DNA of 32,000 nt from Acidothermus cellulolyticus 11B (GTDB lineage Bacteria; Actinomycetota; Actinomycetes; Acidothermales; Acidothermaceae). The position numbers and the translations under genes are program-made. Below are positions 25,712 through 32,000 of the stretch, one piece after another. The notes under the pieces were generated by a model. The model saw only the letters and a program-made list of their open reading frames with translations, searched no databases and had not been told where the DNA came from. Within the stretch, counting starts at the first letter, position 1; each line of letters starts with the position of its first letter. The DNA lies in the NCBI RefSeq assembly GCF_000015025.1, contig NC_008578.1:120001-152000 (forward strand), given 5' to 3'.

Positions 25712-25874
25712 TTCTGCCGGGTAATCAGGCTGATGGATTCGGCGAGAGCGTCCGGCGCCGGCATCCGCCTTGATCTTTGAATCGTTAGTGCTGGACATGG
25801 CGCACCGACCCCGGTGTCGGCGCATCGCCGGCTCCGCATGCTCGTCGCCGTTCGGTAGCGAGAAAGGGGGCGCT

Positions 25875-27008
25875 ATGAGCGCAGTGGTGTCTGCTGTTCG
25901 TCCGGCGGAACCGGTCCAACCGGCACGCCGCAGCCTGCACATCGCGATGGTCGCGCCTCCCTACTTCCATATCCCCCCGTCCGGGTACGGCGGCGTCGAG
26001 CAGGTCGTCGCCGATCTGGTCGATGGTCTCGTCGAGCGGGGTCACCAGGTCACCCTGATCGCCGCCGGTGAAGCACGGACCAAGGCGACCCGATTCATCC
26101 CGACCTTCCCCGAGCCGCTCTCCGATCAGCTTGGTCTGCCGACCCCTGAAGTGCTGCACGCGGCACGGGTTGCCCGCGCGCTTGAGGGTCTCGACGTCGA
26201 TCTTGTTCATGATCACACGCTGGCGGGACCGTTGCTCGCCCGCGGGCGACTCGCACCCACCATCGTCACCGTTCACGGCCCGGTGTCCGGCGATCTCGGA
26301 GTGCTCTACGAGGCGTTAGGTGACACGATCAAACTGGTCGGCATTTCCGAGGCGCAGCGCGCGGCCGCACCGGCCTTGCCGTGGGTGGGCACGGTCTACA
26401 ACGCGATCCGCGTGGAGACCTTCCCCTTCCGGGCGGAGAAGGAGAATTTCGCACTGTTCATCGGGCGGTTCCATCCCGAGAAGGCTCCACACCTGGCCAT
26501 CGACGCGGCGCGAGCGGCAGGCCTGCCGATCGTGCTTGCCGGTAAGTGCGCTGAGCCGATAGAGAAGGCGTACTTCGAGGAGTACGTCCGCCCACGCCTC
26601 GGGCCCGATGTCACGCTCTACGGCGTGGCGGACGCGCACGCCAAGCGTGAGCTGTTCTCAGCTGCGTGCTGCCTGCTCTTCCCCATCTGCTGGGAGGAAC
26701 CCTTCGGCCTCGTCATGATCGAGGCGATGGCCTGCGGTACGCCCGTGGTCGCACTGCGTCGCGGTTCCGTCCCCGAGATCGTGGTGGACGGCCGCACCGG
26801 TGTGGTGGTGGACACGCCGGAGGAGCTGCCGGATGCGATCCACCGGGCCCGTCGGCTCGATCCGCGGGATTGCCGCGCTCACGTTGAACACGAATTCAGC
26901 GTGGCGCGGATGGCTGCCGGCTACGAGGCCGTGTACGAGCGGGTGCTCTCGGCCATTGCCGAGCCGAGTGCGGACGGGCAGCTTCACCTCTCCGCGGGGA
27001 CGGCGTAG
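25875..27008 (+). CDS. GT4-family (GT-B fold, retaining) glycosyltransferase
   Basis: This is the internal ATG 25875 of ORF 25770..27008, preceded by GAAAGGGGG. It has an N-terminal IAMVAPPYFHIPPSGYGGVEQVV and the C-terminal E-x7-E region (EEPFGLVMIEAMACGTPVVALRRGSVPEIV). Confidence 0.9.
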   Translation: MSAVVSAVRPAEPVQPARRSLHIAMVAPPYFHIPPSGYGGVEQVVADLVDGLVERGHQVTLIAAGEARTKATRFIPTFPEPLSDQLGLPTPEVLHAARVARALEGLDVDLVHDHTLAGPLLARGRLAPTIVTVHGPVSGDLGVLYEALGDTIKLVGISEAQRAAAPALPWVGTVYNAIRVETFPFRAEKENFALFIGRFHPEKAPHLAIDAARAAGLPIVLAGKCAEPIEKAYFEEYVRPRLGPDVTLYGVADAHAKRELFSAACCLLFPICWEEPFGLVMIEAMACGTPVVALRRGSVPEIVVDGRTGVVVDTPEELPDAIHRARRLDPRDCRAHVEHEFSVARMAAGYEAVYERVLSAIAEPSADGQLHLSAGTA

Positions 27009-27709
27009 ACGACGACGTTGTCGACGTAGTGGCCGGTCTTCCGGTCGAAGGGTCCGCCGCACGTGACGAGCACGAGCCGCGGAGTTGTCGCCTGGTCGAA
27101 AACCGAGGCGGGAAGGGCGGTCTTTCGGTAGACGCGGCGTCCGACAACGCGATACGTGAACGTGCCGCGGTCCGTTTGCACAAGGACGGCCGACCCCATG
27201 GGAAGCCGGTCCAGGTAGAAGAGCGCGCCGGGTCCCGCTTCGGCGGTGTCGACGTGGCCATCGAGGACGACCGTGCCTTCCTCCCCCGGGGCAGCACCCT
27301 GGCGCCACCAACCGACGACGCGAGGATCCGCCGGTACGCCGAGTGTTCCGTCGGGAAGTATGCCGACGGGCTGGACCGGGGCGCTGACCTTCAGTGCCGG
27401 GATTTCGAGCCGAAGGACGTGCGGTCGCGGGGCCGTGGCGGGCGTGGGGGTGGCCGTGGGCGTGCTGTATCCGAGGCCTGACGCGCTGCCGGCAGTGGCA
27501 GGGTTTGGTGTCCCGGCGGCCCACGGTGGCTGGTTCCCGGACGGCGGTCCGCCGGGGACGATACCCGCCGGACGCGGCGTGATGTAGCCGGATTGCGTTG
27601 CCGCCCACCCGGAACCGGCGAGCAGAACAAGGCCGGCAGCGGCGGCAAGAATCTCCCAGCGCAACCACCACCGGTGGCTGCGCTGGGAGCTGGATGAGTT
27701 GCCACCCAC
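26984..27709 (-). CDS. Sortase (class F/E-like), N-terminally membrane anchored
   Basis: GTG start. It has a TM anchor (WWLRWEILAAAAGLVLLAGSGW), LEIPALKVSAPV, the catalytic His context VVLDGHVD, and the catalytic Cys in LVLVTCGGPFD. The 3' end overlaps the convergent GT4 gene by 25 bp. Confidence 0.85.
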   Translation of the reverse strand: MGGNSSSSQRSHRWWLRWEILAAAAGLVLLAGSGWAATQSGYITPRPAGIVPGGPPSGNQPPWAAGTPNPATAGSASGLGYSTPTATPTPATAPRPHVLRLEIPALKVSAPVQPVGILPDGTLGVPADPRVVGWWRQGAAPGEEGTVVLDGHVDTAEAGPGALFYLDRLPMGSAVLVQTDRGTFTYRVVGRRVYRKTALPASVFDQATTPRLVLVTCGGPFDRKTGHYVDNVVVYAVPAER

Positions 27710-27836
27710 GGCCGGCTCTTCGGTGCGTTTGTTCGCTGCTGCGCAGCCGAACGGCCACGTCGTTTATGGGAACGCGCTTTGTGGCACTGAGCGAGCGCCA
27801 GCGACGGGCGGTCGGACAGCGGCTTCGGTGTTGCGA

Positions 27837-28394
27837 CTAGTGGGTTGACCGGCGGGCGCGGAACGCGAAACCACCGGCGCTCGCAAGCAAGGCGGCACCG
27901 CCTAGCGCCGCCAGCGTGGTGACCAACCAGGTGTTGTGCCGCTGGTCAGCTTGGCCGCCGGTGCCGGCGGTGACCCCGGAGGGCGCAAAGCTGATCAACG
28001 CAAAGGCACTCTCCGTCGGGTTGGGCGTCGGCTGAGCAACGGTGATCATGCAGGGTTGCGTGGCGCTGCAGGTGACATTGTTCTGCCCAAAGGGCCCCTT
28101 GGTCACGGTGATGCTGGCTGATACCGCTCCGTTGGCGTTCGACGTTGTGCTCACCACGCCGTTGAGGTTGCAATCAGCCTGCGAGGTGGAGGCCCCTTTC
28201 GCGGCGCATTCGGTGACAACTAACGGTTCGTTCGGTGAGAATCCGGTGCCGGTGACCTTCACGGTCTGACCGGAAGCGAGGCCCGTACTCGGTGAGACTG
28301 TGATCGACGGACTGGCAGCCGATGCAGGCGCCGACAACAGGATGACCGCTGCCGCTGGGGCAACGAGGGCACTGAGCGCGCCGAAACGTTTCAT
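27837..28394 (-). CDS. Secreted neocarzinostatin-fold domain protein with C-terminal sorting-signal-like anchor
   Basis: ATG at 28392-28394 is preceded by GGGAGG. It has a signal peptide (MKRFGALSALVAPAAAVILLSAPASA). The domain ITVSPSTGLASGQTVKVTGTGF...ECA...DCN...NGAVSASITV...CSATQPCMITV...ALISFA parallels the apo-neocarzinostatin fold. The C-terminus is a hydrophobic helix followed by RARRSTH. Confidence 0.8.
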   Translation of the reverse strand: MKRFGALSALVAPAAAVILLSAPASAASPSITVSPSTGLASGQTVKVTGTGFSPNEPLVVTECAAKGASTSQADCNLNGVVSTTSNANGAVSASITVTKGPFGQNNVTCSATQPCMITVAQPTPNPTESAFALISFAPSGVTAGTGGQADQRHNTWLVTTLAALGGAALLASAGGFAFRARRSTH

Positions 28395-31704: not shown

Positions 31705-31866
31705 CCCGGAATCGGACGGCGGCAGCGATGCAGCCGAACATAACGTGTCGGGATCTGGGGCAATATAGAAAAGCGGATCTTCCGAACGTGTGGATTGCAT
31801 CCGCGAGATCGAGAGGGCGGAGGGCAGGGACGATGGTCGGCACACCGAGGGTCACCATGAGTCCGC

Positions 31867-32000
31867 GTGGTGCAAGGAGTCGGGCTGAGGGTCGGGCCAA
31901 GGCAGGGATCGGGCTGCGCAGCCTGTCGCTAGTCGCGGCAGGACTTTTGCTTGCTGCCTGCAGCAGCTCCCACAAGGCGACCACCGCGCAGACGCCTGCG
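31867..32000 (+). CDS. Putative lipoprotein, N-terminus only (runs off the window end)
   Basis: ATG 31867 (in-frame alternative 31843) gives MSPRGARSRAEGRAKAGIGLRSLSLVAAGLLLAAC-SSSHK. This is a positively charged n-region, a hydrophobic core and a lipobox (LAAC). Confidence 0.5.

Follow-up and report, generated by a model that had tools for sequence, protein, structure and literature searches.

The sortase locus and its two products

The window, a stretch of 32,000 nucleotides from the genome of Acidothermus cellulolyticus 11B (contig NC_008578.1, positions 120,001 to 152,000), carries on its minus strand a gene for a secreted protein of neocarzinostatin fold and, 127 bp downstream on the same strand, a gene for a class F-like sortase. 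The genome is a single contig of 2.44 Mb with 67% G+C, and the closest public proteins are labelled Acidothermus. The upstream protein ends in a hydrophobic helix and a basic tail, preceded by a glycine-rich motif that resembles a sorting signal described in NCBIfam as the GVDTG type. The features of the locus are as follows, in window coordinates:

28317..28394, minus strand: Sec-type signal peptide, residues 1–26, predicted cleavage after A-S-A (before A), by eye from the translation
27837..28394, minus strand: gene for the neocarzinostatin-fold surface protein precursor, putative sortase substrate, 185 amino acids (open reading frame and translation, Pfam PF00960)
27987..28304, minus strand: neocarzinostatin-type Ig-like domain, residues 31–136, both Cys pairs kept (Pfam, PDB)
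27954..27983, minus strand: candidate sorting motif P138-S-G-V-T-A-G144-T-G-G, GVDTG type, with the Ala variant before the invariant Gly (NF058571)
27861..27929, minus strand: C-terminal hydrophobic helix W156–F178 (translation, hydropathy screen)
27840..27860, minus strand: basic tail R-A-R-R-S-T-H, residues 179–185 (translation); one tail Arg is nearly invariant in the 45 tails compared below
26984..27709, minus strand: class F-like sortase gene, 241 amino acids (open reading frame, Pfam Sortase)
26996..27418, minus strand: sortase catalytic domain, about residues 98–238, after an N-terminal membrane helix (about residues 10–37) and a Pro/Ala-rich linker
27254..27256, minus strand: codon of the catalytic His152 (G-H-V-D), invariant in 72/72 class F-like sortases
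27059..27061, minus strand: codon of the catalytic Cys217 (T-C-G-G), invariant in 72/72 class F-like sortases
31728..32000, plus strand, running past the window end: start of a paralogous neocarzinostatin-fold lipoprotein gene (lipobox L-A-A-C; Pfam PF00960)

An earlier note on this DNA, written from its letters alone, had described two co-directional reading frames with the substrate-like gene upstream of the sortase, and both lie where it had placed them. Its reading of each protein was also borne out: the sortase motifs VVLDGHVD and LVLVTCGG contain the G-H-V-D and T-C-G-G of a Pfam Sortase match, the upstream protein has a signal peptide and one apo-neocarzinostatin-like domain, and the hydrophobic helix is followed directly by RARRSTH.

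The downstream gene encodes a sortase whose best family is NF033748, the NCBIfam model for class F. It matches Pfam Sortase (PF04203) with 80.4 bits against a cut-off of 26.6, over profile positions 1–124 of 125, and NF033748 with 126.8 bits (127.7 in the genome search), while the models for classes D, GN and E give 33.2, 27.3 and 26.8 bits, leaving class F the best by a clear margin. A 73%-identical orthologue from a metagenome-assembled genome (MAG) is named 'class F sortase' by NCBI. An AlphaFold2 model of the enzyme (mean predicted local distance difference test score, pLDDT, of 81, exceeding 90 in most of the catalytic domain) has a helix at the N-terminus, joined by a disordered linker to a beta-barrel; the folds nearest to it in the PDB, at 16–22% identity, are sortases of classes C, E and A, and no class F sortase structure was found in the PDB. 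The catalytic residues belong to a set of positions invariant in 72 class F-like sortases (L006–L085): P126, G151, H152, D154, K196, C217, G218, G219, Y228, N231 and V233.

The upstream gene begins with an ATG at 28394, preceded at 6 nt by the Shine-Dalgarno sequence GGGAGG. Its product matches the full length of Pfam PF00960, Neocarzinostatin (59 bits against a gathering cut-off of 25, profile positions 1–110 of 110), and its PDB sequence matches include apo-neocarzinostatin (E 7e-8) and the C-1027 apoprotein (E 1.7e-5), with further similarity to macromomycin, actinoxanthin and apokedarcidin. A 98%-identical protein of 185 amino acids is present in public data. The protein falls just under the 86-bit cut-off of the enediyne antibiotic chromoprotein equivalog NF040680, at 85.8 bits, and a role as an enediyne carrier was considered and rejected: the genome lacks a large ketosynthase-containing gene, its only three ketosynthase-domain matches lying in frames of at most 459 amino acids, which argues that there is no enediyne synthase in the genome and makes a carrier role in this organism unlikely.

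Among the passenger's relatives at 52–60% identity, most are lipoproteins that have a linker rich in Ser, Thr, Ala and Pro and lack the C-terminal tail. A general synteny of sortases with this fold was rejected, since 10 of 12 relatives are lipoproteins or fragments without a tail; the sortase-linked version was seen only in the genus Acidothermus. The conserved synteny between this sortase clade and neocarzinostatin-fold proteins on which the earlier note had made its reading depend thus holds only within that genus, and the unit that is conserved more widely is the sortase with the tail. The window itself contains the start of a lipoprotein relative, on the opposite strand and 3.3 kb upstream of the start of the substrate gene. 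This paralogue continues beyond the window (L005 1114–1824), lacks a C-terminal signal, has a linker of some 100 residues rich in Ser and Ala, and is 57% identical over 108 residues, the similarity stopping exactly where the sorting tail of the window protein starts. On sequence grounds, one fold would be tethered to the envelope of this organism in two ways, a natural exchange of a lipoprotein anchor and a sortase tail.

No terminator-like site was found on the minus strand of the gene pair. The open reading frame of a family 4 glycosyltransferase (GT4; 25770–27008, plus strand) converges on that of the sortase (26984–27709, minus strand), with a 25-bp overlap at 26984–27008 that leaves no room for a terminator.

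A conserved tail in sortase-adjacent proteins

The earlier note had reported that neither LPXTG nor LAXTG is present in the upstream protein, and we likewise found no L-P-x-T-G or L-A-x-T-G before its helix. The LPXTG cell wall anchor model TIGR01167 gives 14.4–14.6 bits, under its cut-off of 15.9, and aligns with the helix and tail only (profile positions 11–32). That the protein might be a missed canonical substrate was rejected, as a strict six-frame scan for L-[PA]-x-T-[GASN] followed by a helix and a basic tail returned one credible substrate, an L-P-M-T-G protein encoded elsewhere in the genome. The tail of the window protein does match NF058571 (GVDTG_CTERM, 'GVDTG sorting domain-containing protein', NCBIfam release 20, with a curated cut-off of 29 bits), at 21.4–21.5 bits and E 2e-4 over profile positions 5–43 of 44. 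A six-frame genome search with this model found the tail of a second protein, described below, and passed over that of the window despite the 21.4 bits from hmmscan, which was taken as a miss of the first-look filter. With this model, the signal is one that was already catalogued.

Eighty loci encoding relatives of the sortase were taken from contigs representing one genome per species, of which 70 had a recognisable sortase open reading frame. In 39 of these 70, a co-directional upstream frame passed an initial screen for a helix and basic tail at the C-terminus. After the distance window had been slightly widened and three spurious frames dropped, 43 foreign tails were aligned with the two of this genome. 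All 45 sortase-adjacent tails share the pattern P-x-G-V-x-[A/T]-G-x-G-G, with 35–47 residues following an invariant Gly, and NF058571 matches 37 of them at E <= 1, both tails of this genome among them. The occupancy of each column, numbered from the invariant Gly, is as follows:

Column −6: Pro in 25/45, and in 17 more one column earlier
Column −4: Gly in 26/45
Column −3: Val in 32/45
Column −2: free
Column −1: Ala in 29/45 or Thr in 11/45
Column 0 (Gly144 in the window protein): Gly in 45/45
Column +1: free
Column +2: Gly in 42/45
Column +3: Gly in 38/45
Column +5: Ala in 28/45

In the window protein the motif occupies residues 138–147 of P138-S-G-V-T-A-G144-T-G-G-Q-A and is followed, after G144, by 41 residues. 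The presence in every one of the 45 tails of a motif upstream of the C-terminal helix answers a check that the earlier note had proposed, and the alignment also fixes the register. The pentapeptide in the register of NF058571 is G140-V-T-A-G144, which parallels L-P-x-T-G, with a free third position, a small or hydroxyl-bearing fourth and an invariant Gly at the fifth, and fits better than the 'xAxTG-like' reading of the earlier note. The evidence supports that reading in so far as it proposes a non-canonical motif, but its T-A-G-T-G register is two residues off: the invariant G144 would fall at 'x', and residue 145, which varies across the tails (S13, T7, G6, A6, D4, E4, L3), would fall at 'T'. 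The other string to which the note had pointed, F-A-P-S-G, contributes the conserved Pro138, which belongs to the same extended motif.

The tail is joined to passengers of many kinds: DUF4397 in seven cases, DUF4142 in seven, CHRD in three, DUF4331 and DUF305 in two each, and, in others, CshA repeats, Big_9/Ig-like or cadherin-like domains, to which the window protein adds the neocarzinostatin fold. Since it is common to otherwise unrelated passengers, it behaves as a sorting signal and not as a protein family. Its conservation is also evident at short distance. In the 81%-identical orthologue from an Acidothermus MAG (G092; proteins P0002 and P0014), every conserved position of the motif is kept while the free ones have changed and the spacer has diverged; this MAG retains both of the sortase/tail pairs found in the genome studied here.

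Tails from Streptomyces form a subgroup of their own, R-G-V-x-A-G-x-G-G-[S/T]-x-x-G-F-D-x-K-E, and score only 16–18 bits on NF058571. At the Streptomyces loci concerned (L054, L056, L061, L066, L078, L080 and L084) the tail-bearing gene lies about 1 kb upstream of the sortase gene and not directly against it.

A loose regular expression for the motif had proved unspecific in this high-GC genome (96 matches in six-frame open reading frames, 29 of them near frame ends and almost all in junk frames) and was dropped for hidden Markov models (HMMs). When an HMM of the 43 foreign tails was run against 27,893 six-frame open reading frames, rank 1 was the protein encoded in front of this genome's second class F sortase (E 3.8e-6) and rank 2 the window protein (E 8.9e-6); rank 3 went to a canonical L-P-F-T-G protein, on account of its helix and tail. 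The top two matches are therefore the two class F sortase neighbours, which is more than chance.

The same linkage is seen across genomes. Among 121 genomes sampled across the class (tail, NF058571 at E <= 1e-3; class F sortase, E <= 1e-15), the tail was matched in 46 and the sortase in 73, the sortase accompanying the tail in 45 of those 46 and occurring in 28 of the 75 genomes without a tail. Of the 69 tail matches, 51 have a class F sortase match no more than 2 kb away on their contig, 47 of these tails being upstream on the same strand and four divergent, and 28 of the 31 that exceed the cut-off adjoin a sortase; several of the non-adjacent matches are at contig ends. Leaving out six genomes flagged as unpublished (G006, G014, G023, G029, G035 and G042) changes these figures to 41/42, 26/73, 50/64 and 27/27, respectively. 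The counts are given without a statistical test because related genomes are not independent.

Two sortase clades with different registers

The genome encodes three sortases, one of class E type and two of class F type. The class E-type enzyme is found in its usual origin-proximal neighbourhood (genome 14.4–17.8 kb, L001), and canonical substrates are few: an L-P-M-T-G protein, an L-P-F-T-G protein and possibly a T-A-H-T-G protein. Two loci encode these class E candidate substrates. One, at genome positions 1042279–1044593 on the minus strand, encodes the L-P-M-T-G protein and a neighbour with T-A-H-T-G-G before a helix and R-R-R; the other, at 2164530–2165069 on the minus strand, encodes the L-P-F-T-G protein, which is small and Pro/Ser-rich with a Tat-like N-terminus.

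The second class F sortase lies at genome 360.5–362.0 kb (L002 1492–3051) and scores 190 bits, above the NF033748 cut-off. Directly upstream of it is a gene for a CHRD-domain protein that ends in V-P-S-G-G-A-A-T-G-G-G-S, a helix and R-R-R-D, a tail that scores 25.3 bits on NF058571. This arrangement repeats that of the window with a different passenger and a shifted register. Because the second enzyme has its own CHRD cargo, each class F enzyme of this genome probably serves one private substrate.

A tree of the 45 sortase domains with a paired tail (a quick search, rooted at the midpoint) splits into two clades with a Shimodaira–Hasegawa-like approximate likelihood ratio test (SH-aLRT) support of 98, and the tails divide with them. 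Clade 2, to which the window sortase belongs, has 24 rows, and 23 of the 24 tails have Pro at −6 and V-x-A-G. Clade 1 has 21 rows and includes the second Acidothermus enzyme; in 13 of 13 of its rows from outside Streptomyces the tail starts P-x-G-G, with Pro at −7, and the clade also holds the Streptomyces subgroup with R-G-V-x-A-G-x-G-G. The two clades are also treated differently by the curated models. On NF033748, six clade-2 sortases score 107–136 bits and four clade-1 sortases 187–208 bits; on NF058571, none of ten clade-2 tails reaches 29 bits and their matches begin at profile position 4–6, while two of ten clade-1 tails reach the cut-off, five more score 27.8–28.9, and the matches begin at position 1–2. 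The window pair is thus a sister branch of enzyme and tail that is under-called by both NF033748 and NF058571, and its sub-threshold scores are accounted for by its membership of the clade away from the P-x-G-G start.

A broader reading of these data, which we put forward tentatively, is that each class F-type sortase is dedicated to one private cargo, has a recognition code that evolves together with that cargo and works without the canonical catalytic Arg, and that the two pairs of Acidothermus are orthogonal. The clade-2 enzyme would then act on P-x-x-V-x-A-G-[S/T]-G-G carried by the neocarzinostatin fold and the clade-1 enzyme on P-x-G-G-x-x-T-G-x-G-G carried by the CHRD protein. If true, the genome would offer natural, mutually orthogonal and thermostable pairs of transpeptidase and tag, along with an answer to the question of what class F sortases do. 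The presence of a single neighbouring cargo with a distinct register for each class F enzyme makes specificity swaps straightforward.

Proposed mechanism, alternatives and related systems

Together, the conserved motif, the positional and genomic linkage of the tail to the sortase family, the intact His152 and Cys217, and a register that covaries with the sortase clade lead us to conclude that the two genes probably constitute a dedicated pair of class F sortase and GVDTG-type substrate. We propose a model whereby the neocarzinostatin-fold precursor would be exported by Sec and stay anchored in the membrane through its C-terminal helix and the basic residues after it, so placing P138-x-G-V-x-A-G144-x-G-G about 11 residues outside the helix and within reach of the membrane-anchored sortase encoded downstream. 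By analogy with the cleavage of L-P-x-T-G between Thr and Gly, Cys217 would attack the bond between A143 and G144 to form an acyl-enzyme (thioester), which an amine of a cell-wall precursor may resolve, leaving the folded domain covalently attached to peptidoglycan. Motif recognition, the scissile bond and the acceptor are all modelled here on known sortases. Of the two options left by the earlier note, the evidence of the 45 tails and of the linkage to class F favors recognition of a non-canonical motif over a coincidental tail anchor.

Several observations weigh against a dedicated pair. Both proteins of the window fall under the curated cut-offs of their best models, the tail under the 29 bits of NF058571 and the sortase with 126.8 of the 166 bits of NF033748. 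In 31 of the 70 loci no upstream frame passed the first anchor screen; contig ends truncate some of these loci, and Streptomyces contributes many, with the cargo further away or not found. The motif by itself, taken without helix and tail, is weak evidence because strings rich in Gly, Ala, Ser and Thr are common in high-GC proteomes. No invariant Arg follows Cys217 in the 72 class F-like sortases, where other sortases have a catalytic Arg, and the chemistry of these enzymes may therefore differ; a profile-profile comparison with the class E sortase of this genome ended before the Cys, and the alignment with 2KW8, the one PDB entry matched at sequence level, stopped just past it. A quadruple knockout of the class F sortases of Actinoplanes missouriensis has no phenotype, and the only characterised class F enzyme, SrtF of Propionibacterium (Cutibacterium) acnes, is reported to be specific for LPXTG. 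Lastly, the literature search yielded no experiment on the GVDTG signal or on a sortase of this clade, nor any paper mentioning the signal, full-text matches for 'GVDTG' being unrelated.

The alternative that fares best accepts that the sortase processes the tail but gives the reaction another outcome than attachment to peptidoglycan, namely hydrolytic release or transfer to a protein lysine, a lipid or a secondary wall polymer. We consider this unlikely, and it keeps the weight that it has because of the missing Arg, in whose stead Asp154, Lys196, Tyr228 and Asn231 are invariant. The distance of the class F enzymes from the nearest folds of known structure points the same way, as do the lack of a phenotype in the A. 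missouriensis knockout and a layout of one enzyme and one cargo, which is nearer to pilin-type or specialised sortases than to housekeeping ones. On the other hand, the succession of motif, spacer, helix and basic tail, with 35–47 residues after the invariant Gly, is the architecture of a wall-sorting signal, and neither a pilin-like lysine motif nor a second subunit gene adjoins the pair in the open reading frames and Pfam search.

Two further explanations have little room left by the data on adjacency and co-variation. A plain membrane tail anchor beside a sortase by coincidence would be consistent with the missing canonical pentapeptide, with both NCBIfam scores lying below their cut-offs and with most passenger relatives being lipoproteins free of any sortase link, but we hold it to be very improbable given a motif kept in 45 tails on unrelated passengers, the proximity of 51 of 69 tail matches to a class F sortase, and the ranking of the two sortase neighbours at the top of the foreign-tail search. 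That the tail is handled by the origin-proximal housekeeping class E sortase, its class F neighbour having some other function, is suggested by the Ala that class E enzymes take at the second motif position (LAXTG) and by the presence of one such enzyme with few canonical substrates, but can scarcely be right when adjacency and co-occurrence are with class F, the tail register follows the class F clade, and no Leu or Pro stands at the canonical positions.

The dedicated class F pair thus preferred, a combination met again in many actinobacteria, has its closest counterparts in the Actinomycetota systems covered by the NCBIfam models NF058571 and NF033748, both the best models for the two proteins of the window, albeit under the curated cut-offs. 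As in the window, a glycine-rich x-[T/A]-G-x-G-G follows the secreted passenger and is itself followed by spacer, helix and basic tail, with a class F-type sortase encoded directly downstream. The tails of the window's clade differ in reading P-x-x-V-x-A-G-[S/T]-G-G, without the P-x-G-G start of the other clade. The natural substrates and the role of class F sortases have been described as unknown in reviews of 2021 and 2024 and in a study of A. missouriensis (mBio 2026, PMC13251363), in agreement with the earlier note, which had called them poorly defined. In A. missouriensis, the neighbours of srtF1 and srtF4 (SrtF1/AMIS_11010 and SrtF4/AMIS_36440) have a signal peptide, a helix and a basic tail and no known pentapeptide, and 'may encode substrates' (PMC13251363). 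From that description they share the layout of the window protein, and no motif was defined for them. Searches for LPXTG-like pentapeptides overlook such neighbours, as the study says of its own organism (PMC13251363). The same organism has CwpG, a candidate sortase substrate with a neocarzinostatin-like domain and a canonical-type pentapeptide that is not encoded next to a sortase (PMC13251363), and thus a precedent for the fold anchored to the wall.

The window enzyme shares with P. acnes SrtF the nominal class and the form of a membrane-anchored Cys transpeptidase, whereas SrtF is reported to be the sole housekeeping sortase of its organism, with a class A-like LPXTG specificity, and the window enzyme has two other sortases beside it in the genome and adjoins one cargo gene, whose product lacks LPXTG. 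With the class E system, represented by SrtE1 of Streptomyces coelicolor (PDB 5CUW, among the closest folds), it has in common its occurrence in actinobacteria and a substrate with a small residue in place of Pro; the identity is about 22%, the score on the class E model is the 26.8 bits given above, the canonical Arg that follows the Cys in class E is not conserved in the window's clade, and Acidothermus has a separate class E-type sortase elsewhere in its genome. The passenger belongs to the same fold family as the enediyne apoproteins (PDB 1J5H, 1HZK, 2MCM, 1ACX and 1AKP), with which it shares both Cys pairs; these are free, secreted carriers of enediyne chromophores, while the window protein is predicted to be tethered to the envelope. 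Enzyme class and signal are already modelled in a curated database, and the system is therefore not new as a kind. Beyond these known systems, the locus contributes a further passenger fold, evidence of a sister branch in which sortase and tail both score below the curated cut-offs, a small thermophile genome with two pairs that can be told apart, and one fold that comes with either a lipoprotein or a sortase anchor.

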